Shown: positions 7,293 through 44,750, counted from the first letter of the stretch. The stretch is DNA of 64,000 nucleotides from an uncultured Clostridia bacterium (GCA_947624625.1 CANQLD010000002.1:415-64414); one strand, 5' to 3'. Translations and numbers: made by a program. Notes: generated by a model not told the origin, from the sequence alone.

Positions 7293-10200
7293 TAACTAAA
7301 GCCTCCTCCTTGTCTATAATCTCTTTTTCAAGAATTATACTTTCTTTATTACTTCCTTCAATTTCAGATGTTGTTAAGAAATCGTCAACATTTTGTATAT
7401 ATTTTTTAGCAAGGAAAGATAAAAGTTTAACTTCATTATCATCTAAAAATCTTACATTTAAAATAAATATGTTTCCTTTTGAATAGTCCATATATACTGC
7501 TCTATCAATTCTTGATTTTACAAAAGTATATAGTGGTCCATCTTTTTCTTGTTTCTCATTGATAAGTACAATAATATCTAAATCTATTTTTCTATTTTTT
7601 ACATAGTCCATAAATTTAATAACTTCACTAATAATTCCAGCATCTTCAATTTTATCTATGTATATAAGAAGAATTGGTAAATCTCCTGATATAGAATACT
7701 TCCAAAGCATTGACTGGCTTAATGATGTATCCCAGAATTTTGATGTATCAACTGTTATTCTATTAAATAATACTTCTTTTAAAATATTATTATATATTTC
7801 TGCTTTACCAGCTTCAAGTTGCAAATATCTAGATGTAACACTATTTAATTCACCTGTTAATTTAAACTGGTTAACTAGAGTTTTATTATCTAAATTTATT
7901 ACAGCATTAGATATTTTGTATTTACTATCACTAACACCTAAAACATAATAGAATTCTTGTCTTTCATATGCATCAAGTATAATTCTAGCTCTATATGAAA
8001 GCACTGGCCATAATGGATATCTATTAATTGTTTCGTTATATGCATTATCTATATCTTTAACTAATTTTTGTTTTTCTGTTTCCATTTCCTTTTCAAGGTC
8101 GATACCTATAAGTTTTGCATATACGAATAAATCTTCGTCATTTTCATTTTTCTTTCTTTTACTTGCAACTAGTATATCTAAATCTTCGTCATAATATGTT
8201 TCAATTTGCAAATTACTAAATGAAGGATGAACCACATTAGTCATATAATCTGTCATAGCCATTTCTATATATGTATTTATTATAATCTCTCTTCTAACAT
8301 TTGAATTGTTATATATACTTACCTTCTTTATTTCCATATTATATTCAGGCGACATATACATTGTTGTTGTTGTTTCAAGTTCATTACTTTCAAGATATGT
8401 TTCAATTTTATTAAGTGAAGCATTAAATAGTGATTTTTTCATATCCTTATTAATACTATGTGTAAGATTTGTATCCATTACAGAAATTGTTTTACCTGTT
8501 ACTTTATCTGTAAGATATATATAATTTCCACAGTTAGCTAAATTTGTATATCTTTGTTTGTTTATAATTTTATCTTTGTATTTTATAAACATATCTCCAG
8601 AATTTGTAACAATAGTTGAAAGATTTAAACCTTTTAACATTGCAATACAAGTTTCATCTTTAATTTCTGTATCAAGTTCTCTATCTTGAGATATATAATT
8701 TACAAATGTTGTATATTTTTGGATATTTTTCTGTTTGAATACATTTTCATTATCAATAGTAGATTTATTTATTGTTGCTCTTAGTTTTTCTCTTTCTTTA
8801 AGTAATATATCACAAGCTCTAATGTCAGGATTTTCGTGGAAACGTTCTTTAATAATTCCGTGATTTATATAATTATTAATTGATGCAAGTATCATACCTT
8901 GATGGTGAGCCATATATGTTTTTACGATTTCGAATTTTTCATTTTCTCCAATATGTTCTTTAGTATAATCAATTGCTTCATAGAAACCATAACTTGAATA
9001 TGCCCCTATCTTTTTTAATCTTTTTATATTTTTATATACACTATATGGATCATATTCTATTGTTAGAAGTGAAGCATATGGAGATACTACTAAGTAATCA
9101 TTAAGACCTCTTTTAAGTCCAAGCCAAGGAATTCCAAACTCTTGATATTGATAATTTAACTGATTATCCTTAACTGCAAATGCAGATTCAGATACTCCCC
9201 AAGGAACTTGGTTATCTCTTGCATATTTTAACTGACTAAATTTATTAAAGAATAATGATTGGTCAATTAGAGTATGTTCATATGATTTATTAAATATATA
9301 TGGCATAAAGTATTCAAATGATGTTCCTGCCCAAGATATAAGCCCCTTATAGCCATCAACTTTAACTAGATTTCTTGAAAGAGCAAACCAATGCTTTGAA
9401 GTTACCTGCCTTCTTGCAATAGCAATTAGACTTGTTGTTCTACTTTCAGACATTAACATATCATAGTAACTATCAATTAGCTTTCCACTTTCCTGAGCAT
9501 ATCCTACGTGGAATAAGTTTCTTGAAGTATCATATAACTCACTAAAATCAGTATCATTAATAAGTTGTTCATTTAAATCATATAAATAATCAAGTACTGT
9601 ATCATATTCTTCATTTTCTCTTTTACCATAAGAATTATTATCTTTAAGTTCATTTATAAACTGTCTTGCAACATAAAGGCAAGCTATAAAATTACCACTA
9701 TCTACTGTTGAAACAAATCTAGGTCTTAATGGTTCAAGTGTTTTTATATTATACCAGTTATATAAATGTCCTTTCCATTTTTCTAGTTTTTCTAAAGTTC
9801 CATATACATTTTTTAATTTAGTAATTGTTTCTTCTTTTGATATGAATTTTAAATCATATGCAGTTATTATTGCAAGTATTCCCATACCAATATTTGTAGA
9901 AGAAGTTCTATTTGCTATTTTGTATCTTCTATTTTCTTGATAGTTATCTGTTGGCAAATAGTTATTTACTTGTGTCATCATACTATCAAAGAAAAACCAA
10001 GTTCTTTTTGCAACTTCAAGCACTTCTTCTTCCTCTTTATCGTCAAGTCTTTTCCTTCTTCCAAGTAAATGGTCTTTTCCAAGTAAATATGCAAGAAATG
10101 GTGCGAATAAAAATGTAAATGCAATTATATATTTAACATTAAAATGTAATGCAGGGTATGTATTTATTGTTGGTATAATGAAAAGTAAAGCTGCAAATAT

Positions 10201-15099: not shown

Positions 15100-18000
15100 T
15101 TAATTATTATTTAACTTAGTAAACTCAAATGTATATTTTGAGTATTGGTATACTCTAAAACCTTTCAAAATTATTTCAATTTTAGAGTTTTTTGTTACTC
15201 CATTACACAAATAACAAGTTTCTTCTCCATTATCTATATCTATTGCACATATTTTTTCTAAGTCGGGATAAAAAAGCTTTTTGTTAAAATATATAGCATT
15301 AGAAAGATAAATGTCCTTTCTTAAGTTAGTTATTTTTGAAAGAAAATCTGTACAAGTTACTTCATTACAAGTTTTGTCACTCATAGATAACAAAAATGCC
15401 TTACAAGTTTTTGGTTCAACAACAAGCCATTTTTGAGTTATTAAATCTGCAAAAATATATGGTGTTGTATGTTTACCAAAATTTTTAATTACAGTTTCTA
15501 TTGCATAAACATATGAAAATATAACTGATAAATCATTATGACCGTTAATAGAAGAGATATTTAAAACCAAATTATCTGGGTATGTTACATTGCCATCACA
15601 TTGCAAGTCAATATCCTTTAAGAATATTTGTTTTTCTTCTCTTTGAGCAGATAAGATATTTAACTTGCCATCAGGTGTTAAATAGCAACATAAAAAGACA
15701 TTTGTAAATGGAATTGCAAGCCCAGCTTTTGGATAGATTACTTTTCTTTTCAAAATTTCATCTTTATCTACTTCTAAATTATTAATAAACGGCTTTACTG
15801 AAAAGTACAGTTTATTTTCACATATTTTAATTATAAAATTATTGTTACACTCATAAAAAGAAGTTGCGTCTTCTAAATATTTTTTAGGTATACCTTTTTT
15901 TGAAAACTTACTTGGAATATTAGCTAAGTTACACTTCAATTTAGAAAAAGCATTTAATACAACGTTTTTTGTATCAGAGATTTCATCATCATTATCCTCT
16001 GTATCAGGATTTTTCTTCTCTTCTTTTTCTACTGGTATCTCAATATCTTCTAATTTGCTAATATAGTTTATTTTAGTATTATAAAGTCTAAAATATTCAT
16101 TAACTAAGTATTTGCCAATATTAAAACGTTTATCTTTTTCAAAAATGTCGAGAAAGGCATTTACAAGCTCATCAGACATCCAGCTCCAATCTTCAATAAT
16201 TGGAGGTACGATAACATCATAATCACCAAGTACAGAGATTCTTGAAACCATTCTTTCTCTTTGTTTTAACACTCTACCATTTTCATCCTTATATACACCA
16301 TTAAATGGATGCAAAAAAGTCAAAACGTAAAATGCCATTATAGCAAGAGAATAATAATCTCCTTCAAAAGAAGATACACAATATCCATAACCTTCTCTAC
16401 TTGTATCTGCTACAACAGACAGTGGGTCTAAGAAAGGCTCCGTATAAACAGTATACTGACCCGGTTTTATATTCGCACTATCTAAGTCAATAACAGATAC
16501 TTCTTTTGTAGATAGATTAAATAGAACGTTATTATGGCTTACATCACCAATATAAATACCATTTATATGGCAAAATTCAATTGCACTACAAAGATAAATA
16601 AGTATCTCTAACTTATCTTTAAGAGTTATATTATACTTTTCAACTTTAGAACGGTCTGTAAGTATTCTAAAAGGCTTACTATTTGTAATTTCCTCAATAA
16701 CAGGACCACAAAATTCGTCAGTTTCATCATCAAGAATTAGTCCAACTGTTTTAGGAATTTTAAAGTTGTACATTGAAGTATCTTGAGGATTAATTTTAGT
16801 AATTAATGTACTAATTACTCTTTTTTTATTTTCAAAGTTTTGTAAGTTCCTTGAAGATTCCTCATTATCATTTTCTCTGTAAATTTTACCCAAGAAACCA
16901 TTTTCTAAATCGTAAATAATTGCTTCACGCCCATCTTCAGAAAATATGGGTTTCTTTTCTACTACACTTCTTTTATATCCTTCTACTTTATATCCACACA
17001 AAGGACATTTTCCATATATTGTAGGAGAATAATAAATGTTATGGAAAATACAAAACTTATTTGTAGAATTTATATATTCTCCTAGAATAGCTATAGCATT
17101 TTCAAAATTTTCACAAATAATGTAAGTACTAAACAACTTTATACGTTCTTTATCAAAACCAATTGCAAGTTCAAAATATTTCTTAAGAAATGTCTTTACA
17201 TTTGGAGTTATAACACTACCTTCTTCTTTTGTAAGATAAATAATTTCATTAACATAAACTTTAAAAGAAGTAGAAAATGAAATAAGCTCTTCAACGTCAA
17301 AACCTTTAATAAGAGATAAATGATTTACTTTTAGCTTAATTAAAAACTTTACAAAACCACGAATACACTTTAAAATTTCTAAATTGCTAAGTGTATCAAT
17401 ATCAAGTAGTTTTCTTGATTTACTTTCATAAGAAAGATAACCAATACTTTCTTTGTCTGAGCCAAAGTCAAATACGTTTTTATAAACGATATTTTTTAAG
17501 TTTATACCTTTCAAATTTCTTGCAAAGTTTACAAAATCAACTTCATTTTTACTCTTTACATTAAGACATTTAAATTGCAAACCGTTTACAATATCAATAC
17601 TATAAAGATATGTGGTAAATAAATCGTTTGAAGAAATCCCTTCGTACTTCTTTGTAAATCCCCTTTTATTTACAAAGAAGTCATCTTTAAGAAAAGCTGG
17701 CGAAGGGGTAAAACTTGTAAGAGTTCCGACATCATTACGAAGTTTTGCTAAAAAATCATATATGCGTTTTGTTTCTTTGCACATAACACTACTTCCAGCA
17801 TACGGAATACCAACTCTAACATCCCTTACATCAAAATTTGCAAGTTTGTATAATTTATTTATAGCTTTAACATAGGTATTCATAATTTTATAACAAATTT
17901 CTTTTTCTTTATCTTCCTTATCTTCTATATAGTTAATCAATACATTTTGGTTTAAGTAGTTATCATTGTAAACACAGTTTGATATAATTCTTCTTAAATT

Positions 18001-20223
18001 TACATACGGTTTAAGTGTTTTGCTAAAACAAATTGAATTAATATCAATGTATACCATATACTTCATTGAGTGATTAATTATTTGTAATAGTAACATGATT
18101 ATATCAAATATTGCTCTTACACGGTCTTCATATTTAAGTTTTGCAATTAATTTATCAACATCTGATAAATACACATAATTTTTATAGCTTCTCGAAGGAA
18201 ATTTTAGACCATAAATCTCAAAATCATCAGATACTTTTACAGTTGAATAATAAACTATATTTTCAGGTGCACAAATTACAGAAAGCTTATAATTTGAACC
18301 ACTAGATATTTTAGATGCATACCTTTTTATTGAGCTTATATGCTTAAGTAATGAAGAAACTTCATCATAAGCAAGTCTATTTGTTTTTAAGATATTTACA
18401 TCATTTGTTGGTAAATCATCAACAAATACAGGTGGTAATTTTCTCGGAGAAACTACATATTTTGAATAAAAATTTAACCCATATATTGAATAATCTGCCA
18501 AAGTATTTTTAATAGCCCTAAAAAAGTAAAATTTATCAAAATCGCCACCAGTTATATAGCTCTCATAGTATTTTATAAAATAAGGTGACATTGAATATAC
18601 ATAATACTTACCTTCTATATACTCAATTTTCCCCTCTTTAATATTATAACTAACAAGTTGATTAAAAAAGCTAATAAAGCTTTTTACTATAAAATCAATA
18701 AATTCTTCAGAAAGCTTATTATTAGACTCTTTTTTTACAATTTCCATATTTTCAATATTTCTAAAAATTAAACTATTATTTGGAATATCAACTATAATAT
18801 CATCAAGTGTTAATTCCTTGTTAAAGTTTAGTACACCAACTCCATCAATTAAATTATATAAATCCTTTGAGTAAAATTCAAGAATCTTACTATAAAGCTC
18901 TTTAAAAGTTTTTAACATATTGCTACAATTTATATACTTTGAAAGTGGAACTATATCTTCACTAGAATCACCAGTAAAAACACCGTAATCTTCAATCATA
19001 AAACCAATTGGATGTTCTTGTCCATCTTGATATATAAGTTTAAATATTTTGTAGTCATTATCAAACCTACTACTAGAATACAATTTCATAAAATTCTTTA
19101 AAAAACAACAAAGAACTTTCATATTACTTAGTGATTCTTCATCATCTTTTTTATAAATTATATAACTTGTTCCCTTATAGGTTATAACATCATACAAGCA
19201 TGTCGAATATTTTACATCACCATTTTTAATAATCGCTCTATATGTATCTTCAGTAACATATGAAAGCACGTCACTTGCATAAGGAGATACTAAAAGCCGT
19301 TTCCGATTGTATACATTATTTCCAAATATCGCTAAGTTTTCAAATTCTTCAGTTACTACCTTAGCAAAATATGCTAAATCAACATTTTCATTTAACTTAA
19401 AAACTCTTTTATATAAATCAATAAACTGGGTAGATAAGTAATGAAAACATTCGTCTTCTAATACTTTACTATAGTAGTATTCACCAAAATTTTGAGTTGA
19501 AAAGTCACAAAAGTGCAGTTTAGTTGCGACATACTTTAAATAGCATTTTAAATTAAATGAATAATTTAACTTTTTATTTTCATTCAAAACCTTCAACTCA
19601 TGTATATTATTCATTGTAAGATATGGTATACCAGCTACATCATTAATTTCACTTGTTTCCACAATTTCATTAAAAAATGGGGCTTCTGAGATTAAAATAC
19701 CATTTGAAGATAAAAATACTATAAAATTTAAAAGTGCCATTAGATATTTGTATACGTTGTTTTCTTTAAAAGTCTCAATGTTGGTACCAGAATTAAATCT
19801 TAACTCTAAATGCTTGAAGTTACGAATTTTAACGACATTATTCCGACGTAATATTCCTAAATTTATATAGCGTTCATAGCCTATTTTTATTGAGTCAAGA
19901 TTTTCTTGTTTTTCTGGAATTTCATATCCAATAATTGCTTTTTTAGAATCATTATCCTCGTAAATACATACAAGTTTAGCTACATTAAATTTAATAAGAG
20001 ACGAATCATCATATGATTTTAAAATCTGAATAATTTTTTCAAAATTTTCTTTATCTGTTATTGGATTTTTAGGAATAACAATCTTACGAAAAGTCCCTAA
20101 ATCATAGTAATAATTTACTGCAGAACCATTTGGAGATTTAACATCATTATTTTGTAAATTCGCAGATAAAAATCTCGATTTAAGTCCCAAAGAAAAATTT
20201 TTTATACCAGCTTTTATGTTCAT
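15100..20223 (-). CDS. 1707-aa multi-domain protein: about four degenerate kinase-like modules, a zinc ribbon, one apparently active Ser/Thr-kinase-like core and an unknown C-terminal domain
   Basis: Uninterrupted ORF. Kinase signatures in one segment: GFLGKIY, CHINGIYIGDVSHNNVLF (D-x4-N), VSVIDLDSA, YTEPFLDP and DYYSLAIMAFYVLTFLHPFNG. A CxxH...CPLC ribbon lies just upstream. The context is vWA + PP2C neighbours. Confidence 0.75.
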   Translation of the reverse strand: MNIKAGIKNFSLGLKSRFLSANLQNNDVKSPNGSAVNYYYDLGTFRKIVIPKNPITDKENFEKIIQILKSYDDSSLIKFNVAKLVCIYEDNDSKKAIIGYEIPEKQENLDSIKIGYERYINLGILRRNNVVKIRNFKHLELRFNSGTNIETFKENNVYKYLMALLNFIVFLSSNGILISEAPFFNEIVETSEINDVAGIPYLTMNNIHELKVLNENKKLNYSFNLKCYLKYVATKLHFCDFSTQNFGEYYYSKVLEDECFHYLSTQFIDLYKRVFKLNENVDLAYFAKVVTEEFENLAIFGNNVYNRKRLLVSPYASDVLSYVTEDTYRAIIKNGDVKYSTCLYDVITYKGTSYIIYKKDDEESLSNMKVLCCFLKNFMKLYSSSRFDNDYKIFKLIYQDGQEHPIGFMIEDYGVFTGDSSEDIVPLSKYINCSNMLKTFKELYSKILEFYSKDLYNLIDGVGVLNFNKELTLDDIIVDIPNNSLIFRNIENMEIVKKESNNKLSEEFIDFIVKSFISFFNQLVSYNIKEGKIEYIEGKYYVYSMSPYFIKYYESYITGGDFDKFYFFRAIKNTLADYSIYGLNFYSKYVVSPRKLPPVFVDDLPTNDVNILKTNRLAYDEVSSLLKHISSIKRYASKISSGSNYKLSVICAPENIVYYSTVKVSDDFEIYGLKFPSRSYKNYVYLSDVDKLIAKLKYEDRVRAIFDIIMLLLQIINHSMKYMVYIDINSICFSKTLKPYVNLRRIISNCVYNDNYLNQNVLINYIEDKEDKEKEICYKIMNTYVKAINKLYKLANFDVRDVRVGIPYAGSSVMCKETKRIYDFLAKLRNDVGTLTSFTPSPAFLKDDFFVNKRGFTKKYEGISSNDLFTTYLYSIDIVNGLQFKCLNVKSKNEVDFVNFARNLKGINLKNIVYKNVFDFGSDKESIGYLSYESKSRKLLDIDTLSNLEILKCIRGFVKFLIKLKVNHLSLIKGFDVEELISFSTSFKVYVNEIIYLTKEEGSVITPNVKTFLKKYFELAIGFDKERIKLFSTYIICENFENAIAILGEYINSTNKFCIFHNIYYSPTIYGKCPLCGYKVEGYKRSVVEKKPIFSEDGREAIIYDLENGFLGKIYRENDNEESSRNLQNFENKKRVISTLITKINPQDTSMYNFKIPKTVGLILDDETDEFCGPVIEEITNSKPFRILTDRSKVEKYNITLKDKLEILIYLCSAIEFCHINGIYIGDVSHNNVLFNLSTKEVSVIDLDSANIKPGQYTVYTEPFLDPLSVVADTSREGYGYCVSSFEGDYYSLAIMAFYVLTFLHPFNGVYKDENGRVLKQRERMVSRISVLGDYDVIVPPIIEDWSWMSDELVNAFLDIFEKDKRFNIGKYLVNEYFRLYNTKINYISKLEDIEIPVEKEEKKNPDTEDNDDEISDTKNVVLNAFSKLKCNLANIPSKFSKKGIPKKYLEDATSFYECNNNFIIKICENKLYFSVKPFINNLEVDKDEILKRKVIYPKAGLAIPFTNVFLCCYLTPDGKLNILSAQREEKQIFLKDIDLQCDGNVTYPDNLVLNISSINGHNDLSVIFSYVYAIETVIKNFGKHTTPYIFADLITQKWLVVEPKTCKAFLLSMSDKTCNEVTCTDFLSKITNLRKDIYLSNAIYFNKKLFYPDLEKICAIDIDNGEETCYLCNGVTKNSKIEIILKGFRVYQYSKYTFEFTKLNNN
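16110..16950 (-). other. Predicted catalytic protein-kinase core within the 1707-aa protein
   Basis: The catalytic-loop Asp codon is at 16543..16545 (IGDVSHNN). The DLD (DFG-equivalent) is at 16480..16488. Domain boundaries are approximate. Confidence 0.6.
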
Positions 20224-31671: not shown

Positions 31672-32133
31672 ATGAAGAAAAAAAGCATAATTATTATTGT
31701 AATAGTAGGAATTATAGTAGTAATATTAGGAATTGTTTTATTTGATTTATTATTTCCAAGAGAAAAGAGACTAGATGAAATAAATTATAAAATTAATGGC
31801 CCATTTAAAGCATATAATGTTCAAGAAGAAGGTAATGATATAATTGTTACCGAGTATTTAGTTAATCCTTTTAGAAAAACTCTTCATTATCAATTTTCTG
31901 ATGATGATAATTTAGAAAAAAATGTTATAACAGAATATTATGAAAATAAATTAACTGCAATATGTAATTATTTTAAACATAAAAATGTATATGCAGATGA
32001 TGTTCAGTTAAAAAATAATACAATTACATATACAGATAAGACAATGCCAACTCCAATTCAACATTATACAAAAAATGATATACAAAACCATATAGATAAT
32101 CTTTATAGTGGTACACCTAAAGTTAATAATTAA
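31672..32133 (+). CDS. Small N-terminally anchored protein, paralogue 1
   Basis: 153 aa. The MKKKSIIIIVIVGIIV... TM anchor is nearly identical to that of the next gene. RBS GAGAGGTG. Confidence 0.6.
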   Translation: MKKKSIIIIVIVGIIVVILGIVLFDLLFPREKRLDEINYKINGPFKAYNVQEEGNDIIVTEYLVNPFRKTLHYQFSDDDNLEKNVITEYYENKLTAICNYFKHKNVYADDVQLKNNTITYTDKTMPTPIQHYTKNDIQNHIDNLYSGTPKVNN

Positions 32134-32317: not shown

Positions 32318-32770
32318 ATGAAGAAAAAAAGCATAATTATTATTGTAATAGTAGGAATTATAGTAATATTAGGAATTGTTTTATTTGATTTATACTTTCC
32401 AAGAGAAAAGAGATTAGGTGAAGTAGATTATAATTATTCTAAGCCTATTAAAGCATATAATTTTCTAAAAGAGGAAAATGACATAATTGTTACTTATTAT
32501 TTAGATGATCCTTTTAGAAGAGTTCTTCATTATCAATTTTCTAATGATGATTTTTTAGAAAAAACTATTGTAACAGACTATTTTGAAAATAAATTTAGTG
32601 CTATATTTAATTATATATATAATTATAAAGAAAAATATAAATATAATGATGTTAAGTTAAAAGGTAATGCAATTATATATACACAAGAGGCAAATTACAA
32701 TGAAACAAAAAATGATATTCAAGAATCTATAGAATATCTTTCTGAGGGCAGTCAAGAAATTAATTTATAA
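32318..32770 (+). CDS. Small N-terminally anchored protein, paralogue 2
   Basis: 150 aa. Shares the N-terminal ~33 aa and the HYQFS(D/N)DD block with 31672..32133. Confidence 0.6.
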   Translation: MKKKSIIIIVIVGIIVILGIVLFDLYFPREKRLGEVDYNYSKPIKAYNFLKEENDIIVTYYLDDPFRRVLHYQFSNDDFLEKTIVTDYFENKFSAIFNYIYNYKEKYKYNDVKLKGNAIIYTQEANYNETKNDIQESIEYLSEGSQEINL

Positions 32771-34318: not shown

Positions 34319-34711
34319 TTAATTTAAATCTTCGATAAAATGAACAAGCGAGCTTATAAAAGTCGAATTAATCATTTTATTGTTTGGTTCAAGTGCGTTT
34401 TTACCAAAAACATAGACAAGTTCGTCGTTATTATTTGAACCAACCATACAACACTCAACTGCGTGACGAATTGACCTTTCTACTCTAGACCTTGTTGTGT
34501 CGAATTTTTTAGCAAGCTCTTCATACAAGCCACCTACAATGTTACGCAAATACCCGTGGTCGGATAAGCCAAGAATCACAGCCTCTTTGATGTAGTCATA
34601 CCCCTGAATTCCTTGAGGCACTCCGATATACTTTAAAAGCAAACCTGTTTTCCGAGATAATGATACCTCTTCCCTCATTTTTTCTTCCAACCTGTCCAAA
34701 CCGTCTTTCAT
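34319..34711 (-). CDS. Stand-alone Spo0A C-terminal (DNA-binding) domain protein, no receiver domain
   Basis: The segment IGVPQGIQGYDYIKEAV...LYEELAKKFDTTRSRVERSIRHAVE aligns with B. subtilis Spo0A IGVPAHIKGYLYLREAI...[25 protein letters not shown]. ATG at 34711 is preceded by GAGGAGG. Confidence 0.8.
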   Translation of the reverse strand: MKDGLDRLEEKMREEVSLSRKTGLLLKYIGVPQGIQGYDYIKEAVILGLSDHGYLRNIVGGLYEELAKKFDTTRSRVERSIRHAVECCMVGSNNNDELVYVFGKNALEPNNKMINSTFISSLVHFIEDLN

Positions 34712-34885
34712 TTTGTTTCCTCCTCTATTAAGATAAGATATTTTTTCCAACAAAAAGTAATAGTTGGAAAATGTAAGTTTACAGTAATATTTTATCAAAT
34801 TATTTATGAAATGTCAAGTTTTATGTAAAATACTATTGATATTTTTAATATAATTATGATATAATACTAAAAAAGGAGTAAGAAT

Positions 34886-36367: not shown

Positions 36368-37246
36368 ATGTTTAAAGGCTCAGGTGTTGCACTTATAACA
36401 CCATTTGATGAAAATAATAATGTAAATTATGATGTACTTTCAAAGTTAATAGATTTTCAAATTGAAAATGATACTGATGCAATTATTATATGCGGTACGA
36501 CAGGTGAAAGTTCAACACTTTCTCTTGAGGAAAAAAAAGAAGTAATAAAATTTACAGTTGAAAAAACTAAAAAAAGAATCCCTGTAATTGCAGGAACAGG
36601 CTCTAACTCAACAAGTGATGCAATCTATATTTCTAAATATGCTCAAAGTGTTGGTGCAGATGGTTTACTTTTGGTTACTCCATATTATAACAAATGCACG
36701 CAAGATGGACTATATTTGCATTATGAAGCTATTGCAAAAAATGTTAATATTCCTATAATATTATATAACGTACCAAGTAGAACAGGTGTAAATATTGAAA
36801 CGGAAACACTGACTAAACTTTCAAAAATTGATAATATAGTTGGTATTAAAGAGGCAAGTTCAAACATATCACAAATTGCAAGTATTTTTTCAAAAGTTAG
36901 AAATGATTTCCTTGTTTATTCAGGAAATGACGACCAAATACTTCCTATACTATCTCTTGGAGGAGCTGGCATAATTTCTGTTCTTGCAAATATATTCCCA
37001 AAAGATACTCATAAAATTTGTGAGAATTTTTTTGAAGGAAATATTGATGAAGCAAGAAAACTACAACTTAAATATTTTGATGTTATAAAAGGTCTTTTCT
37101 GTGAGGTAAATCCAATTCCTGTTAAAGAGGCTTTAAACTATCTAGGATATAATGTTGGTAAATGCAGACTTCCTCTATGTGATATGAAAAAAGAAAATAA
37201 AGAATATCTATTAAAAAATATTGAAAATATAAAAGACATACTATGA
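36368..37246 (+). CDS. dapA: 4-hydroxy-tetrahydrodipicolinate synthase
   Basis: 292 aa. Motifs GTTGESSTL, YNVPSRTG and the IVGIKEAS active-site Lys context. Confidence 0.95.
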   Translation: MFKGSGVALITPFDENNNVNYDVLSKLIDFQIENDTDAIIICGTTGESSTLSLEEKKEVIKFTVEKTKKRIPVIAGTGSNSTSDAIYISKYAQSVGADGLLLVTPYYNKCTQDGLYLHYEAIAKNVNIPIILYNVPSRTGVNIETETLTKLSKIDNIVGIKEASSNISQIASIFSKVRNDFLVYSGNDDQILPILSLGGAGIISVLANIFPKDTHKICENFFEGNIDEARKLQLKYFDVIKGLFCEVNPIPVKEALNYLGYNVGKCRLPLCDMKKENKEYLLKNIENIKDIL

Positions 37247-37266
37247 TAAAATTTCATAGTATGTCT
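37234..37266. terminator. Bidirectional terminator shared by dapA and paralogue P1
   Basis: 13-bp perfect stem AGACATACTATGA/TCATAGTATGTCT. The same CATACTATGA...TCATAGTATG core recurs after P2, P3 and P4. Confidence 0.75.
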
Positions 37267-37273
37267 ATATAAT

Positions 37274-38323
37274 TTATTCTTTTAGCGATTCAAGGAATTC
37301 CCTTTCCTTTTTATTTGTTGAAGTATTTAGCAGGTAATTATAAGACTCAAATAAAGCCTTACAATGATTATGTGACTCAGGGCCATGTACATAATCTTTA
37401 AACATTTTTACTAATTTAAACAAATCAATATTTGTATTCTTAACTAAGAATATAAATAATTTGTCCGCAAAAAAAGGTTGACTAGTGCTAATCTTTACAA
37501 GTAAATTTGAGAAATACTTTAAAATTTTAGCTTCATCATTATTAAAGTAATATTCAATAATACTACTGTAGTCAAATAACCCATACAAAAAAATCAAAAT
37601 ATCATAAAAGCTAGTTAAAGTGTTAATATAAAAGAAAATAAACTCACTACTAGTTCTTATGAAATAAGGCTTTTTATACAATGTTATTATATCATCTACC
37701 GAGTAATTTAAATTAATATATTTTGCAAAAACTTCATAATACTCAATGCCAAACTTTGGTATATAATTGGCCAAAAGCAAGCTTAACTTTTCCATATTAC
37801 TTAAATTACGTTCTTTAAGTGCAGATTCAAAAGCAAGTATTTTTTCAACTACATCATCTTTGCTTTTGGCAAATCTACTTAAATACTCTTTTGCCGAATA
37901 ATAAATAAAAAAATCGCTTTTACATAAAAGACTTTTATATTTTATTATATATTCAGTTGGTAACATAGCAAATACTTCATATAACTTATCTTGCAATTTA
38001 GCATCATATTTTAAATTGTCAATATAAGCTATATTACTTATAATTTGTTTAAATAAATCCTCACTTATAGGGTGCTTTACTATTTTTATAAATGCCTCTA
38101 TGTTAATTACAAATACACGTGTTAAAAAATTTTCCGAAACGAATACATTGTCAATATATTCTGTTGCTTGCAAATAGTTAGTTAAGGATGCCAATATCAC
38201 TTCTGGATTAAACCGAAGCGGATATGGTAATTCTTCGATAAGTTTGCCATTATTCTTTAATTCTGTAGTTAATTCCTTTAAATTATCAAACCCTGCCGAC
38301 TTAATTTCTCTGTTTACATTCAT
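37274..38323 (-). CDS. Paralogue P1 of unknown cytosolic protein family
   Basis: Family blocks present: FDNLKEL...LKNNGKLIEELPYPLRFNPEVIL, EKILAFESA and FESYNYLL...EFLESLKE. RBS GGAGG. Confidence 0.7.
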   Translation of the reverse strand: MNVNREIKSAGFDNLKELTTELKNNGKLIEELPYPLRFNPEVILASLTNYLQATEYIDNVFVSENFLTRVFVINIEAFIKIVKHPISEDLFKQIISNIAYIDNLKYDAKLQDKLYEVFAMLPTEYIIKYKSLLCKSDFFIYYSAKEYLSRFAKSKDDVVEKILAFESALKERNLSNMEKLSLLLANYIPKFGIEYYEVFAKYINLNYSVDDIITLYKKPYFIRTSSEFIFFYINTLTSFYDILIFLYGLFDYSSIIEYYFNNDEAKILKYFSNLLVKISTSQPFFADKLFIFLVKNTNIDLFKLVKMFKDYVHGPESHNHCKALFESYNYLLNTSTNKKEREFLESLKE

Positions 38324-38386
38324 TGTATTGTCCTCCTTCTAATTTTTTTGTGATTACACATAAAATTCTTAATCATTTTCGAACTC

Positions 38387-38415
38387 ATTTTATCACAGCA
38401 ATTTATTTATGTCAA
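38387..38415 (-). promoter_or_regulatory. Promoter of P1
   Basis: TTGACA (38410..38415), a 17-nt spacer ending in TGA, then TAAAAT (38387..38392). The -35 box is bracketed by a 10-bp inverted repeat. Confidence 0.55.
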
Positions 38416-38456
38416 TAATAAATTGCTTTTTGTAAGTTTTTTTACCTTTAATAAAC

Positions 38457-38494
38457 AAAACATACTATGAAATAAAAATCTCATAGTATGTTTT
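38457..38494 (-). terminator. Terminator after P2
   Basis: 14-bp stem AAAACATACTATGA/TCATAGTATGTTTT. Confidence 0.75.
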
Positions 38495-38500
38495 GTTAAG

Positions 38501-39568
38501 TTACTTTTTTAAAGATTCAAGATAATTTCTTTCTTCATTATCAGTTACACTACTTAATAAATAATTATATGACTCAATAATAGTTTTACACTCATCACAT
38601 GATAAAACATATTTAAAATCTATAATTAAGTCAAACATCTCAATTAAGTTATATACATCAATATTTGTATATTTAAGTAGGAATGCGAATAAATCATCTG
38701 CCAAACTATATCTATTCACTTTATCTCTTTCAATTAGTAATATAATATAATCTTTAATTTTATAAATTTTTTTACAAAAATATGATTCAAAATCGTTACT
38801 ATTATTGCCAAAAAATCTATTTAAAACCAATTTAATTTCAAAACTTCTAGATAACCTAGTAATATAATAAAGTATAAATTCACCAGTTTTAGTTGTTATA
38901 TATGTTCTTTTATAAATAGTTAATAATTCACCAGCCGAATAATTACTGCTTATATAATCATAAAAAATTTCAAAGTAATCTCTACCAAATTTAGGTATAA
39001 GCACTTCAAAAAGAAGACTTATTTTAACCTCATCAGTAAAATCGCTTTCTTCAAAGGCGGATTCAAAAGCAAGTATTTTTTCAACTACATCATCATTATC
39101 AGCATTACTTTTTGCAAATCTATTCATATATACTTTACTAGAATAATATTTAAAAAAGTCAATTCTACATAAAAGATTTCTATATTTAACAATGTATTCA
39201 ACTGGCATTTCAAAAAATACATCATATAATTTATCTTGTATGTTTTTATCACTATCTATATTCTCAATCTTTCCTATATTATTTATAATTACTTTAAATT
39301 TACTTTCATTTATCCTACCTAATTTTAAAAAAGCCTCTAAACTATTTAAAAAAATCTGCGTTAAAAAAGATTCTGAGATATCATTGCCTACTATATCGAT
39401 ATATTTTACTGCATAAGGATAAGTGCGTATTGCCTCTAAAATTACCTCTTCATTAAGCCGAAGTGGATATGGCAGTTTATCAATAAGACTTCCATCAGAT
39501 TTAAGTGCTTTTAATAATTCATTAAAATTTTTGAATCCCATTGAATCAACAAACCTACTAACATACAT
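38501..39568 (-). CDS. Paralogue P2
   Basis: 355 aa. Roughly two-thirds of positions match P3 by eye. Confidence 0.7.
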   Translation of the reverse strand: MYVSRFVDSMGFKNFNELLKALKSDGSLIDKLPYPLRLNEEVILEAIRTYPYAVKYIDIVGNDISESFLTQIFLNSLEAFLKLGRINESKFKVIINNIGKIENIDSDKNIQDKLYDVFFEMPVEYIVKYRNLLCRIDFFKYYSSKVYMNRFAKSNADNDDVVEKILAFESAFEESDFTDEVKISLLFEVLIPKFGRDYFEIFYDYISSNYSAGELLTIYKRTYITTKTGEFILYYITRLSRSFEIKLVLNRFFGNNSNDFESYFCKKIYKIKDYIILLIERDKVNRYSLADDLFAFLLKYTNIDVYNLIEMFDLIIDFKYVLSCDECKTIIESYNYLLSSVTDNEERNYLESLKK

Positions 39569-39631
39569 TATATAGTCCTCCTTTAAATTTTTTTGTGATT
39601 ACACATAAAATTCTTAATTATTTTCAAGTTT

Positions 39632-39660
39632 ATTTTATCATAGCAATTTATTTATGTCAA
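39632..39660 (-). promoter_or_regulatory. Promoter of P2
   Basis: TTGACA, 17 nt, then TAAAAT, with the same layout as P1. Confidence 0.55.
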
Positions 39661-39694
39661 TAATAATTTTTTTTTATAAGTTTTTACCTTAAAA

Positions 39695-39733
39695 AAACAT
39701 ACTATGAAATAAAAATCTCATAGTATGTTTTTT
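39695..39733 (-). terminator. Terminator after P3
   Basis: 13-bp stem AAACATACTATGA/TCATAGTATGTTT plus a T run. Confidence 0.75.
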
Positions 39734-39735
39734 AA

Positions 39736-40788
39736 TTACTGTTTTAAAGATTCAAGATAATTTCTTTCTTCATTATCAGTTACACTACTTAATAAATAAT
39801 TATATGTTTCAATTATAGTTCTACATTCATTAATAGATAAAGCATATACAAATTTTATAACTATATCAAACATCTCGATTAAGTTAAATACATCAATGTT
39901 TGTATTTTTTAGTAGAAATGCAAATAATTCATCTGCAAAGATATATTTATTAATTTTTTCCTTTTCAACTAATGATATGATATACTCTTTAATTTGATTA
40001 AGGTTATTAAAAAAATACGATTCAAAATCATTGGTATTATTGCCAAAAAATTGATATAAAACATCTAAAATTTCAAAGCTTTTAGTTAACCTATTAATAT
40101 AATAAAGTATAAAATAACCAGTTGTATTTGTTACGTATGTTCTTTTGTATATAGTTAATAATTTATTAACCGAATAATGTGAAATGATATATTTAGCAAA
40201 GACTCCAAAATAATTTCTGCCAAATTTAGGTATAAGAACTTCAAAAAGAAGACTTATTTTATCCTCATCAGTAAAGTCACTTTCTTCAAAGGCAGATTCA
40301 AAAGCAAGTATTTTTCCAACTACACTTTTACTATTCTTAAATCTATCCATAAATTTTGTACTAGAATAATATTTGAAAAAATCACTTTTACATAAAAGAC
40401 TTTTATATCTTATTATATATTTAGTTGGTATTTTAAAAAATACATGATATAATTTATCTTCCGTGCTATTATCATTATATAAATCATAAATCTTTCCTGT
40501 ATTATTAATTATTACTTTAAATTTTCTTTCATCTATAGGACCTAATTTCATAAATGCATCTATATTATTTAAAAAAATCTGTGCTAAAAATGAATCTGAA
40601 ATATCGTGATTTCTATCAATATACTCTACTGCATTTGGATAAGTACGTATCGAATCTAATATTACTTCTTTGTTAAGCCGAAGTGGATATGGCAGTTTAT
40701 CAATAAGACTTCCATCAGATTTAAGTGCTTTTAATAATTCATTAAAATTTTTGAATCCCATTGAATCAACAAACCTACTAACATTCAC
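39736..40788 (-). CDS. Paralogue P3
   Basis: 350 aa. GTG start 8 nt after GGAGG. Confidence 0.7.
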   Translation of the reverse strand: MNVSRFVDSMGFKNFNELLKALKSDGSLIDKLPYPLRLNKEVILDSIRTYPNAVEYIDRNHDISDSFLAQIFLNNIDAFMKLGPIDERKFKVIINNTGKIYDLYNDNSTEDKLYHVFFKIPTKYIIRYKSLLCKSDFFKYYSSTKFMDRFKNSKSVVGKILAFESAFEESDFTDEDKISLLFEVLIPKFGRNYFGVFAKYIISHYSVNKLLTIYKRTYVTNTTGYFILYYINRLTKSFEILDVLYQFFGNNTNDFESYFFNNLNQIKEYIISLVEKEKINKYIFADELFAFLLKNTNIDVFNLIEMFDIVIKFVYALSINECRTIIETYNYLLSSVTDNEERNYLESLKQ

Positions 40789-40850
40789 TATATATTCCTC
40801 CTTTAATTTTTTTTGTGATTACACATAGAATACATATTATTTTCAAACTA

Positions 40851-40879
40851 ATTTTATCATAGTAATTTTTTTATGTCAA
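40851..40879 (-). promoter_or_regulatory. Promoter of P3
   Basis: TTGACA, 17 nt, then TAAAAT. Confidence 0.55.
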
Positions 40880-40930
40880 TAATAAATTGCTTTTTGCAAG
40901 TTTTTTTAACTTTAAAATTTATATAATAGA

Positions 40931-40968
40931 AAAACATACTATGAAATTTTTTCATAGTATGTTTTTTA
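40931..40968 (-). terminator. Terminator after P4
   Basis: 15-bp stem AAAACATACTATGAA/TTCATAGTATGTTTT plus a T run. Confidence 0.75.
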
Positions 40969-40973
40969 TTTAC

Positions 40974-42029
40974 TTACTTAACTATAGATTCAAGAAATTT
41001 TCTATCCTCAACATCTGTTACACTATCTAATAAATAATTATATGACTCAATTAAAGCATCGCACTTATCTTGTAAAATAACTGTAGAATGTATCTCATTC
41101 TTGAACATCTTTACTAGTTTAAATACATCTATATTTGTATTTTTAACTAAAAATTTAAATAATTCATTTGCAAAAGAATTTCTCTTACCATATACATTTC
41201 CTAACAATAATGAAAAATAATTTATAATACTATTTTCATTATAATCAAAGAGTCTTTCAATTTTACCAGTATTATCAAAGTAACAATATAATATCTTTAT
41301 AACTCTAAAAGTATCAAAAAAATTTTTAATATAATATAATATAAACTCGTCAAAACCAGAATTTATAAAAGACGGCTTTTTATTAATATTTATTATGTCA
41401 TTAACTGAATAATTAGATTCAATATATTTAGCAAAGATTTCAAAATAATTTTTACCAAGTACAGGTATAAAATATTCTACAATAATTCTCAACTTATTCT
41501 TTTTATTAAATTCGTAATTCTCAATCGAACATTCAAAAGCAAGAAGTTTTTCAATTACATTTTCATCCATATAAACATATTTTTCCACATACGTTTCCGA
41601 AGAATAATATTTATCAAAATCATATTTACGTAAAAGTTCTCCATTTTTTAATATAAAATTAATTGGCATAATATAGAAAAAGCTATATAATCCATCTTGC
41701 AAATCAGGATCGCTTTCTAAATTTTTTATACTTGGTATTTGTCGTATAGCTTGTTTAAAAAACTCATCATCAAGCTTACAATTTACAAATCTTGTAAATG
41801 CCTTCATATTGTTTATAAAAACATCTACTAAGAAATCATTAGAAGCATAGTTCATATCAATATACTTAATTGCTTTAGGATAGGTTTTTACTGCCTCTAA
41901 TATTACTTCTTGGTTTAGCCGAAGTGGATAAGGCAATTCTTCAATAAATTCTCCGTTACTCTCCAGTTTCTTTAATAATCTCTCAAAAGTTTCATAACCT
42001 GTTGATTTGAGCATTCTTTCTAAATTCAT
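40974..42029 (-). CDS. Paralogue P4
   Basis: 351 aa. Only 52 nt separate it from the P5 stop, with no -35 box or terminator between them, so it is probably co-transcribed with P5. Confidence 0.7.
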   Translation of the reverse strand: MNLERMLKSTGYETFERLLKKLESNGEFIEELPYPLRLNQEVILEAVKTYPKAIKYIDMNYASNDFLVDVFINNMKAFTRFVNCKLDDEFFKQAIRQIPSIKNLESDPDLQDGLYSFFYIMPINFILKNGELLRKYDFDKYYSSETYVEKYVYMDENVIEKLLAFECSIENYEFNKKNKLRIIVEYFIPVLGKNYFEIFAKYIESNYSVNDIININKKPSFINSGFDEFILYYIKNFFDTFRVIKILYCYFDNTGKIERLFDYNENSIINYFSLLLGNVYGKRNSFANELFKFLVKNTNIDVFKLVKMFKNEIHSTVILQDKCDALIESYNYLLDSVTDVEDRKFLESIVK

Positions 42030-42081
42030 TATATTTTCCTCCTTTAAATTTTTTTCATAAAAATCATATGAATTTTTAAGC

Positions 42082-43176
42082 TCATTTTATTAAAGTTTCA
42101 AGAAACTCAATTTCCTCTTTATCAGTTGTAATATAGACTAAATTATCATATATTTCATCAATATGTTTGCAAGACTTTCCAGATAATTCATCTGTATAAT
42201 GAATATAGTCTTTAAACATTTCAAGCAACTTAAAAATCTCAATAGGTAAACCATTTTTAAGTATGAATATAAACAATTTATCAGCAAATAAAGCTATATC
42301 TAATGTTTTATCTTCAGCTACATTATCAAGTAACATTGCAAAATAATCTACCACTCTTTCTTCTTTATGAAAATATGAATTAAATCTTTCAGAAGAGTCA
42401 AATACAGAATAAAGCACATTTAATACATCTAAAACATTAGTAGATTTTGTTAATAATATAATATAATTTAGCATAAAGTGCATTATTTTATTATCTTTAT
42501 ATCTACTATCAGTACTACAATATACATCTAATACTTCTTCAACCGAATAATTAAAAATAAGATACTTAGCAAAAAAATTATAATAATCAAAGCCTAAATC
42601 CCTTACAAATGAAAAGATTATGATACTAATACTCCCAACATTATTGCTTGGAAAATTATCAGGATAACAACCTACAATTTCAAATGCTATAGCTCTTTGC
42701 ATTACATCTTCTGTTTTATTAATAAATTTTTTTAAGTAAGTTATATTATCGTAATAACCATAAAATTTACTATTTCTTAATTCGTCACTAAATTCATATA
42801 TATATTCTATTGGAAACATATTCCAAATCTCACATAAATTATCTTTTATCTTATCATTCTCAATTTTTAGCGATATATTTACTATATTTTTTAAAATTAT
42901 TTTAAATAACGTTTTAGTAATTCGTGGCTTTAGTTCTATAAAAGTCTCCAAATTTGTAAGTAAAACTTTTTCTAAGAAAGCATCTGAACAAAAATCCTTG
43001 TCGATATATTTTATCGCTTGTGGATAATTACATAATGCTGCAAGTATTACTTCAGAATTGTACCGAAGTGAATATGGTAATTCGTCAATAAGTTCACCAT
43101 TTAACTTAAGTGCTTTTAGTAATTCAATAAAATTTTCAAATCCTGCTAAATTTACTTCTCTTTTAAAATTCTTCAT
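42082..43176 (-). CDS. Paralogue P5 (most divergent)
   Basis: 364 aa. Retains FENFIELLKALKLNGELIDELPYSLRYNSEVIL and the C-terminal EFLETLIK. Confidence 0.7.
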   Translation of the reverse strand: MKNFKREVNLAGFENFIELLKALKLNGELIDELPYSLRYNSEVILAALCNYPQAIKYIDKDFCSDAFLEKVLLTNLETFIELKPRITKTLFKIILKNIVNISLKIENDKIKDNLCEIWNMFPIEYIYEFSDELRNSKFYGYYDNITYLKKFINKTEDVMQRAIAFEIVGCYPDNFPSNNVGSISIIIFSFVRDLGFDYYNFFAKYLIFNYSVEEVLDVYCSTDSRYKDNKIMHFMLNYIILLTKSTNVLDVLNVLYSVFDSSERFNSYFHKEERVVDYFAMLLDNVAEDKTLDIALFADKLFIFILKNGLPIEIFKLLEMFKDYIHYTDELSGKSCKHIDEIYDNLVYITTDKEEIEFLETLIK

Positions 43177-43237
43177 TTTAAATTCCTCCTATTAATTATG
43201 GTAATTACTCATATTATACACAAACATTTGCAGACTC

Positions 43238-43266
43238 ATTTTATCACGGGAAATTACTGATGTCAA
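43238..43266 (-). promoter_or_regulatory. Promoter of P5 (and probably P4)
   Basis: TTGACA (43261..43266), 17 nt, then TAAAAT (43238..43243). Confidence 0.5.
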
Positions 43267-43268
43267 TA

Positions 43269-43652
43269 TCAAAAAATATTTTCACATATTATTTTCTGCC
43301 TATCTACCACCATAATTAGATTTGCTCTTAATCTTTGTATATGTACATAACTTTCTTCATAATTTTCTTTATTTATATATGCTTTGAGTTCTACTAAACT
43401 ATCATCTATTTGATCAATTAAATCATTTTGTACAAATATATTCCAAGCATCTTTTACATTTTTCCAAGAGTTTTCAAGTTCTTTTATGCTTTCCTTAGCT
43501 TTTTCTATATTTTTGTTATTTAACATATTTTCAGTATAATTTAAATCTGCAAGGACAAAGTTAGAACTATTATTTAAATAATATGTTTCTCCTATTCCCC
43601 CTAAAACAACTAATGCAATACTTACTATTAATATAAAAATCTGTCTTGTCAT
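43269..43652 (-). CDS. DUF4363-like small membrane-anchored protein
   Basis: 127 aa with an N-terminal TM helix and a helical body. It has a 4-nt overlap with the upstream DUF421 gene, a pairing typical for this family. Confidence 0.55.
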   Translation of the reverse strand: MTRQIFILIVSIALVVLGGIGETYYLNNSSNFVLADLNYTENMLNNKNIEKAKESIKELENSWKNVKDAWNIFVQNDLIDQIDDSLVELKAYINKENYEESYVHIQRLRANLIMVVDRQKIICENIF

Positions 43653-44302
43653 TTACTACTCACCTCTTGTTTTAATTGATATATAAACTTTTTATTGTCA
43701 TCAATAGTACCAACTAATATATCTTCTATATTTAATTTTTCTTTCTTTACAATTTTGTTTACTTCCTCTTCTGTTATATTTAAAATCTTTATATTAATCT
43801 CAGATATTTTTCCATCTTCAATAATATTTAGAGGTAAATTATTTATATTATCACTATATTTTATAACACTTAAATTTCCATTTGTTTCTACAATTGCAAA
43901 CTTTACATCTTGTATCTTAAATACATTACACTCTCTTAATTGTGACATTAAATCAGGTATAGTATATTGAAGTCTTTTAAATTCATCTTCAAGTATTTTT
44001 CCGTCTTTTATAATAGGAGATATAGTTCCACAAACTACATCTTGAGCTTTATTACTTGACTGAATAATTAATGTAAATATTATATATGCAATAAGTAAAG
44101 TAACTATAGGAATTATTCCATCAAATATGGAAATACCTCTTGACGACATTGGAGCTGACGCAAGGTCTGCTATTAAAATTATTATTGCAAGTTCAAAAGG
44201 TTGTACTTTTGAAAGTTCTCTTTTTCCCATAAGTCTGATTACTAAAAAAACTATTGCATATAGAATTAATGCTCTAAAAAAAACAATTAACATTTTTATC
44301 AC
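43649..44302 (-). CDS. DUF421/YetF-family membrane protein
   Basis: Motifs RLMGKRELSKVQPFELAIIILIADLA and a C-terminal soluble domain, as in YetF/YrbG-type proteins. Confidence 0.7.
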   Translation of the reverse strand: MIKMLIVFFRALILYAIVFLVIRLMGKRELSKVQPFELAIIILIADLASAPMSSRGISIFDGIIPIVTLLIAYIIFTLIIQSSNKAQDVVCGTISPIIKDGKILEDEFKRLQYTIPDLMSQLRECNVFKIQDVKFAIVETNGNLSVIKYSDNINNLPLNIIEDGKISEINIKILNITEEEVNKIVKKEKLNIEDILVGTIDDNKKFIYQLKQEVSSK

Positions 44303-44381: not shown

Positions 44382-44750
44382 ATGGACGAAATTCAAACAT
44401 TAAAAAATAACACAGATACATTAAGACTTTCACAAATGTTTCTAAGGTTTATAACATCTGTTTCAATATTTGCAGTAACAGTCTTTTTTACACCAAATTT
44501 TAATATATCTTCATTTCCAATATTAGTTCTTAGTGCAATTACAATAACTTTATTTGATTATCTTGTTTCAATAATAACAGGTATTCACGATATTCCTCTT
44601 GGAAGAGGATTTGTTGGGTTTACTTCTGCAGCAATTATTATATATATAACGCAGTTTTTTGTTGATGGCTATTATATATCAGTTATAAGTAGTTTAATTG
44701 CAGCAGCAATTTATGGAATAATTGATAGTATGCTTCCAAATAGAAGTTAA
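44382..44750 (+). CDS. Small integral membrane protein (3-4 TM helices; possibly DUF2512/YndM-like)
   Basis: 122-aa hydrophobic ORF with RBS GAGGAGG. The family call is tentative. Confidence 0.5.
   Translation: MDEIQTLKNNTDTLRLSQMFLRFITSVSIFAVTVFFTPNFNISSFPILVLSAITITLFDYLVSIITGIHDIPLGRGFVGFTSAAIIIYITQFFVDGYYISVISSLIAAAIYGIIDSMLPNRS

Follow-up and report, generated by a model that had tools for sequence, protein, structure and literature searches.

Why would a bacterium carry five consecutive copies of one gene, most of them with a private promoter and terminator, in an otherwise ordinary part of its chromosome? The question is raised by a 64,000-nucleotide stretch of DNA from an uncultured Clostridia bacterium (GCA_947624625.1, CANQLD010000002.1:415-64414), referred to here as the window, in which five co-oriented paralogues on the minus strand span positions 37274-43176 and encode proteins of 349-364 amino acids. 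The explanation that we favour on balance is the amplification of a whole transcription unit, followed by the maintenance of its fast-evolving copies as paralogous binding modules. The descriptive part of this account, namely that an entire unit was amplified, that all copies have been maintained and that they evolve rapidly, is very probably correct. Its functional part, in which the copies may serve as specificity variants, is put forward tentatively.

The genes are named A to E in the order of their transcription; an initial annotation had numbered them along the plus strand, such that A corresponds to P5, B to P4, C to P3, D to P2 and E to P1. All are intact open reading frames (ORFs). A (42082-43176, minus strand, as are the other four; 364 amino acids) has diverged the most and heads a putative A-B operon, while B (40974-42029, 351 amino acids) has no promoter of its own. 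C (39736-40788, 350 amino acids) starts with GTG; D (38501-39568, 355 amino acids) is 72% identical to C and was the copy chosen for modelling; and E (37274-38323, 349 amino acids) is the nearest to the single copy of a sister species, with 54% identity. The five proteins align from end to end, with pairwise amino acid identities of 35-50% outside the C-D pair. The initial annotation, which had recognized five tandem co-oriented paralogues of this size sharing an N-terminal, a central and a C-terminal block, was accurate in these respects, and the alignment adds two further conserved blocks, IPKFG..Y.E.FAKYI..NYS and FAD.LF.FL.KNTNID.F.L..MF.

The array and the unit repeated in it

A one-genome-per-species scan returned a single relative of the locus (L001), in a metagenome-assembled genome (MAG) of an uncultured Clostridia bacterium, isolate Lapin-003-2, whose name suggests a rabbit source. 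The syntenic order there is DUF421/YetF, DUF4363, one copy of the family gene (353 amino acids) and a convergent dapA. The survey of copy number and synteny that had been proposed at the outset thereby finds one copy in L001 and five in the window at the same site, with fixed boundaries in both species: the DUF4363 gene on the left (43269-43652, minus strand) and dapA, encoding DHDPS, on the right (36368-37246, plus strand). The L001 copy already possesses the same promoter, leader box (ATGTGTAATCAC) and Shine-Dalgarno (SD) sequence, and the same hairpin overlapping the dapA stop codon. For this reason we read the window, with high confidence, as holding a lineage-specific amplification, from one to five, of a complete transcription unit of ~1.24 kb. 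Such a unit would begin ~35 nt before the end of the DUF4363 gene, continue with a strong sigma-A-type promoter, a TGTG-N4-CACA leader, the SD sequence and the coding sequence, and finish at the hairpin that overlaps the dapA stop.

Both ends of this proposed unit have counterparts inside the array. The hairpin 3' of E (37234-37266, listed without a strand) is common to E and the convergent dapA; its 5' arm on the plus strand consists of the last dapA codons (GAC ATA CTA TGA, that is D, I, L and stop), and the internal hairpins can therefore be interpreted as copied 3' ends of dapA. This supports the earlier proposal that the duplication unit was bounded, or seeded, at the dapA terminator. The U-tract of this presumably ancestral hairpin is good on the minus strand and poor on the plus strand. 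At the opposite end, the junction spacers, from the hairpin to the -35 element, align with the final ~35 nt of the DUF4363 gene, and every repeat junction seems to have received a copy of these nucleotides; in such AT-rich DNA, the alignment is no more than suggestive.

Near-consensus promoters with a TG extension (TTGACA-17-TGnTAAAAT) lie on the minus strand upstream of A (43238-43266), C (40851-40879), D (39632-39660) and E (38387-38415), precisely the four genes to which the initial annotation had assigned them. They are among the six best sites (scoring 11/12) of a 9-kb scan, the other two being on the plus strand. Those of A and C read TTGACA-17-TGATAAAAT. The promoter of A begins 2 nt past the DUF4363 stop codon and matches the one preceding the single copy in L001; it would be the ancestral promoter of the locus. 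Except at the A-B junction, the spacers measure 167-185 nt and each contains a hairpin and a promoter. Terminator hairpins on the minus strand stand 3' of B (40930-40966), C (39698-39727) and D (38461-38490), in addition to the one 3' of E. Their arms are invariant in six of six copies, and the palindrome CATACTATGA..TCATAGTATG occurs exactly four times in the 64 kb, always within the array, with zero occurrences expected. A terminator had also been attributed to P5; the hairpins follow P4, P3, P2 and P1, and P5 (A) has none.

Since the full unit already surrounds the single copy in L001, the private promoters are no evidence of special regulation and are best seen as a by-product of duplicating a whole transcription unit, not as a special regulatory design. 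The suggestion that independent transcription recalls immunity arrays finds no support here, the promoters having been inherited from a single-copy unit and the distant relatives described below apparently forming a single-promoter operon.

C, D and E share a leader carrying the box ATGTGTAATCAC (TGTG-N4-CACA) on the minus strand at 40815-40826, 39595-39606 and 38350-38361, respectively; it is also written as the TGTGTAATCACA box. The common leader initially described for four genes holds for these three and not for A, in which the box is ATGAGTAATTAC and the A-run is absent. Interpretation of the leader as a structured RNA was rejected: fold z-scores range from +1.06 to -2.43, four of the five values being weaker than -1.6, and the consensus fold amounts to no more than a 3-bp stem devoid of covariation. 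Rfam returned no match in the array at E <= 1 and none at gathering scores across the 64-kb window. Given that the leader has no stable or covarying fold, the TGTG-N4-CACA box is better read as a candidate protein-binding site and thus as a candidate operator. Two observations adjoin this subject. The gene at 34319-34798 (minus strand) encodes 159 amino acids with a Spo0A_C domain alone (E = 1e-23) and no receiver domain; its product is 59% identical to the L001 orthologue, the neighbours being 80-96% identical, and it could be a candidate regulator acting at the leader box. Nor did any Rfam family reach its gathering score in front of serS (32995), a place at which one would not be surprised to see a T-box leader in a Firmicute.

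The 52-nt A-B junction (42030-42081, minus strand) has a different composition. Read from the sequence, it consists of the hairpin's 5' arm and loop followed by the 3' end of the leader with its SD; it lacks the promoter (-35 and -10), the TGTGTAATCAC box and the hairpin's 3' arm. We read it as a deletion scar: a later loss of ~125 nt would have removed the hairpin 3' arm, the promoter and the leader box between A and B, fusing the two genes into one operon.

That the five copies are an artefact of MAG assembly, for example strain variants laid in tandem, is hardly credible. The source is indeed a MAG contig, and two low-coverage contigs from other samples (L006 and L008) have different C/D junctions, but the copies are only 35-72% identical, far past strain variation, and parts of the array are reproduced by the independent contigs L002, L006 and L007, on which basis the artefact was rejected. 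In L007, from another sample, A, B and the 3' portion of the spacer between B and C are 99.8% identical to the window, and L002 matches the window at 99.96% from the tail of C through the whole of D to the head of E; together, these two give independent support for the gene order. L006 runs from DUF421 and DUF4363 through A and B to the region upstream of C, and differs at three places across those four genes and their spacers.

Exchange between neighbouring copies also appears to have left its mark. C and D, otherwise 83% identical as genes, agree at every position over 112 nt at their 5' ends and over 65 nt at their 3' ends, tracts that we read as a signature of gene conversion. L006 passes from the C upstream region and first codons into the body of D, and L008 passes from the body of C into the D downstream region and E, each switching within an exact C/D tract. 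These two contigs would be either four-copy arrays produced by unequal crossing-over or chimeras of assemblies with ~3x coverage. Homology the size of the unit would allow unequal recombination between neighbouring units.

Divergence and maintenance of the copies

Between the window and L001, the flanking proteins are 80-96% identical, with a synonymous divergence (dS) of 0.63-1.0 and a ratio of nonsynonymous to synonymous divergence (dN/dS) of 0.03-0.22. The family gene behaves differently: dN/dS is 0.30 for E against the single copy of L001 and 0.53-0.66 for the other four. Comparison of the paralogues with one another gives dN/dS values of 0.35-0.80, with a dS of 0.36 for C-D and of 0.6-1.15 for the other pairs. 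Relative to synonymous change, these proteins have thus changed 3-10 times faster than those of neighbouring genes. A dS of 0.6-1.15 implies that most of the duplications are about as old as the species split, with C/D being younger; in a neighbour-joining tree, the L001 copy groups with E, and A is deepest.

This difference in rate bears on whether the family protein could be a cytosolic adaptor for two membrane proteins, DUF421 (YetF-like) and DUF4363, perhaps in some process of the spore or the envelope. Both species have DUF421, DUF4363 and the family gene in this order on one strand, and the promoter of A all but abuts the DUF4363 stop codon, as mentioned above. Conservation, however, is 96% for DUF421 and 91% for DUF4363 versus 54% for the family gene, and tightly interacting partners are not expected to evolve so unequally. 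In addition, the family gene has its own strong sigma-A-type promoter, and its distant relatives adjoin rpmB, with neither DUF421 nor DUF4363 beside them. We consider such a role very improbable.

A neutral simulation predicts more than 12 stop codons per copy, none of which is observed in A-E; the other five reading frames contain 14-88 stops each. Because none of the five ORFs is interrupted, despite the more than 12 stops apiece expected from neutral drift, decay of the copies can be excluded on this reckoning, and the decaying duplicates that the initial annotation had named as evidence against its own interpretation were not found. Regulatory DNA has been preserved as well. From promoter to ATG, C, D and E share 85-88% identity with one another and 75-79% with L001, whereas synonymous sites differ by 45-59%. 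Gene conversion alone was ruled out as the cause, the elements being conserved in the other species too; since conversion does not operate across species, purifying selection on expression signals would account for the regulatory conservation at least in part.

These data must be weighed against a second account, in which the copies are redundant duplicates under relaxed constraint and heading to loss, their amplification having served dosage or having been neutral. The paralogue dN/dS values are high, although below 1, and the array is poor in GC (22.8-23.3% across 38001-44000, compared with 24-33% in most of the window and a mean of about 27%). The sister species manages with one copy only, and the distant array contains one frameshifted copy in one contig (L003) and another truncated copy in a second (L004). 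Nevertheless, five ORFs have stayed intact at a dS of 0.36-1.15, and the conservation of four promoters, three leader boxes and four hairpins far exceeds that of synonymous sites, also across species. The presumably orthologous pair of E and the L001 copy is likewise fast, which makes speed a property of the family and not of redundancy. Taken together, we regard loss-bound redundancy as improbable, and retain maintained, rapidly evolving copies as the preferred description.

The protein and its relatives

The family DUF4116 (PF13475; gathering score 24.9 bits) matches A, B, C and D with 31.9, 33.1, 28.4 and 31.4 bits; E scores 15.2 bits, yet is clearly homologous by alignment. The DUF4116-like N-terminus suspected in the initial annotation is hence confirmed above the gathering score in four copies, with E below it. 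The match covers residues ~19-60 (..LxxxGxxIxxLPxxLRxNxEVILxAxxxYxxAxxYI), one stretch per protein; several tandem repeats of ~49 amino acids forming the bulk of the protein were not found, a single unit being detected. A search for internal repeats, aligning the N-terminal unit with residues 63-355, was negative (hhalign probability 0.1%). For the remaining ~290 residues there was no other match in Pfam, NCBIfam, PADLOC, PHROGs or PDB sequences, and in a PDB sequence-profile search no E-value fell below 0.25. A characterised housekeeping family, whose recognition would have spoken against the initial annotation, did not emerge from the Pfam, NCBIfam or PDB-profile searches.

An AlphaFold2 model of D, based on eight sequences, is all-alpha (pLDDT 89.1, pTM 0.81) and consists of about 25 helices of irregular length, the longest of 31 residues (179-209). 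The corresponding model of a distant relative (P0038) was poor, with a pLDDT of 62.6 and a pTM of 0.38. The protein is thus modelled as one N-terminal DUF4116 unit followed by ~290 amino acids of an unclassified all-alpha fold. A Foldseek comparison of the D model, one of the checks proposed at the outset, produced no match at E <= 0.001 against PDB or BFVD. Only generic armadillo (ARM)/HEAT or designed solenoids were retrieved: the PDB list was led by designed armadillo/helical-repeat proteins, importins and PP2A-A-type scaffolds (best E = 0.01, TM <= 0.32) and the BFVD list by giant-virus proteins, several of them annotated as DUF4116 (TM <= 0.34).

The array proteins can therefore be compared with two kinds of helical protein. 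DUF4116 is predicted to form an alpha-solenoid (PMC8078820), and the family resembles DUF4116 proteins in its all-alpha nature and in the N-terminal match of four of five copies. It is unlike them in having one unit, the other ~290 residues matching neither DUF4116 nor their own N-terminus. DUF4116 has no assigned function, and membership therefore explains nothing about what the array proteins do. ARM/HEAT and importin-like alpha-solenoids, which are non-enzymatic binding platforms, supply the best Foldseek matches of the D model, but at TM <= 0.34 and with root-mean-square deviations of 10-25 Å; no significant superposition on a solved ARM/HEAT member was obtained, and the array protein has irregular helices and no sequence periodicity.

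Columns invariant over nine family members are nearly all hydrophobic or aromatic, the exceptions being one Cys and one Glu, and no catalytic-looking constellation was seen among them. The isoelectric points are 4.9-6.4, and the highest 19-residue Kyte-Doolittle means of 1.0-1.7 leave no signal peptide or transmembrane helix evident, as first reported. These properties point to a soluble, acidic, non-enzymatic protein that probably acts in binding or as a scaffold.

In the databases searched, the family appears to be extremely rare, comprising only about three locus types. A word-indexed search of 5.8 billion cluster representatives (~15 billion proteins) retrieved only the window genes, the sister-species copy (P0004), a protein 90% identical to that copy (P0002) and fragments. 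An exhaustive hidden Markov model (HMM) search, in which a five-copy profile was run against 1.84 billion representatives, gave 79 matches. Four full-length clusters all belong to this locus type, and there was one distant full-length relative (P0026, 327 amino acids, E = 3.6e-6). Two members of the latter's group, P0038 (317 amino acids) and the 112-residue fragment P0010, were matched at the N-terminal part only, P0038 aligning over its full length in a later family alignment. As many as 70 of the 79 matches are confined to residues ~15-65, the DUF4116 unit, and are mostly multi-repeat DUF4116-type proteins. Searches of JGI metagenome contigs, IMG/VR, GenBank phages and PLSDB plasmids yielded no relatives.

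The distant relatives, too, stand in tandem, as three tightly packed paralogues of 327, ~325 and 317 amino acids, convergent with rpmB and apparently transcribed as an operon from one promoter. In L003 (188-3194), copy 2 is frameshifted and split into 113 and 220 amino acids; in L004 (163-2759), copy 1 is truncated to 164 amino acids. This damage is either real pseudogenisation or the result of low-coverage assembly errors.

How might maintained, fast-evolving copies act as binding modules? A constant hydrophobic core, along with the N- and C-terminal blocks, would hold the fold and perhaps a common partner, while variable helices would give each copy a different specificity. Most plausibly, the copies would play a conflict-type role, as inhibitors, immunity proteins or sensors. 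Tandem arraying recurs in the family, the distant relative also being a three-copy array, and that part of the earlier interpretation which spoke of diversifying, intracellular and probably independently transcribed paralogues is supported. If the copies are specificity variants of a binding protein, they would represent a new family in the bacterial conflict repertoire and the first functional context for the DUF4116 repeat. A more far-reaching version, in which this is a new all-alpha family of immunity, inhibitor or sensor proteins with a DUF4116 head and a variable helical body, amplified as separately transcribed specificity variants, strikes us as unlikely. Were it true, the locus would be polyimmunity-like with a new fold and a new array architecture, it would furnish a first functional handle on DUF4116, and the independent origin of arrays in two distant lineages would suggest that multiple variants had been selected for repeatedly.

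Several points weigh against maintained copies acting as binding modules. The dN/dS scan along the alignment, another of the checks suggested initially, was made with Nei-Gojobori sliding windows on C-D, the only unsaturated pair; no window clearly exceeds 1, the peak being about 1.0 at codons 100-150, and positive selection was accordingly not demonstrated. Synonymous sites are near saturation in most pairs, and the rates can be accounted for by relaxed constraint no less well than by diversifying selection. With two species and one distant array, the family sample is very small. Transcription of each copy is predicted from sequence only. Lastly, no toxin or Imm family was found in the window, L001 or L003-L008, and no partner, defence or mobile gene in the window or related loci.

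Genomic setting and known systems

The window is ordinary chromosome, with serS, engB, dapA, a VTT-domain membrane protein, a U32 peptidase, a SpoU methyltransferase, lepA, typA, an FtsH-like protease and GH94 enzymes. No toxin, secretion, recombinase, phage, defence or mobile genes were seen in its 64 kb, which agrees with the initial remark that no toxin or secretion gene lies nearby and extends it to the related loci. PADLOC-DB v2 gave zero defence families for all five proteins at E <= 1, and no Imm-type Pfam or PHROG family matched them. The idea of an immunity or anti-effector array, put forward on first inspection, accordingly finds no support in these searches or in the neighbouring genes of any locus.

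Other features of the window deserve brief mention. A second tandem pair of paralogues, of ~150 amino acids each (31672-32133 and 32318-32770, plus strand) and 53% identical, begins with one and the same hydrophobic N-terminus (MKKKSIIIIVIVGIIV..); neither protein matches Pfam, and the syntenic L001 region lacks both. An ATPase of 451 amino acids with AAA_14 and DUF4143 domains (50289-51644, minus strand) has no L001 counterpart, the flanking genes there being ~145 nt apart, and looks like a lineage-specific insertion or deletion. The sole Pfam match of a 1707-residue ORF (15100-20223, minus strand) is a marginal protein kinase at residues 1193-1354 (31.8 bits, cut-off 31.7). Adjacent GH94-type genes (5235-12885, minus strand) encode 1868 amino acids (Glycoamylase and GH94 supersandwich) and 685 amino acids (GH94 catalytic) with a 14-nt overlap, and could be a split or two-part enzyme of the cyclic-glucan/phosphorylase type. 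Divergent from the DUF421-DUF4363 operon is a 122-residue Phage_holin_4_2 membrane protein (44382-44750, plus strand); its conservation in L001 (90% identity) makes a prophage origin improbable.

Among the concepts described so far, the homogeneous polyimmunity locus of polymorphic toxin systems (Zhang et al. 2012, PMC3482391) comes nearest, and the array could be one if each copy were an orphan immunity protein against a different polymorphic toxin of gut competitors. Like such loci, it consists of tandem, co-oriented, diverged cytosolic paralogues uninterrupted by toxin genes; it evolves fast, is present at one locus per genome as far as is visible, and differs in copy number between relatives, one versus five between species and possibly also between strains, L006 and L008 suggesting four copies although these may be ~3x-coverage chimeras. 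All-alpha repeat immunity proteins (HEAT, ankyrin) have been described alongside homogeneous loci (PMC3482391), and the distant array is a tight operon of the kind depicted there. The key feature of polyimmunity families, adjacency to a toxin in some genomes, is nonetheless missing, no member adjoining a toxin, secretion system or recombinase in the available loci, and neither an Imm-type Pfam family nor a PADLOC model was matched. Polyimmunity loci often adjoin a XerC/D-type recombinase and are variable islands; no recombinase was seen among the scanned array neighbours, and the array occupies a fixed chromosomal site flanked by syntenic housekeeping genes. They are also polycistronic with short spacers, whereas the spacers here are 167-185 nt with their own promoter and terminator, only A-B (52 nt) being operon-like and the distant L003 tight. 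Most immunity proteins, moreover, look smaller than ~350 amino acids. We therefore consider a polyimmunity locus unlikely, if somewhat less so than loss-bound redundancy.

Whatever the role of the copies, the locus is a well-documented orphan family of an uncultured organism and offers a clean natural example of whole-transcription-unit amplification, in which the boundaries are readable as fragments of dapA and the DUF4363 gene and in which gene-conversion tracts stand beside the probable promoter-deleting fusion that created an operon. In its unit-length repeats bounded by the same sequence, its exact C/D tracts and the register switches seen in contigs from other samples, it resembles ordinary tandem amplification by unequal crossing-over and gene conversion. 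It differs from that process in that the repeat is a complete transcription unit, whose regulatory parts have been conserved through a dS of ~0.6-1.0 and all of whose copies are intact.

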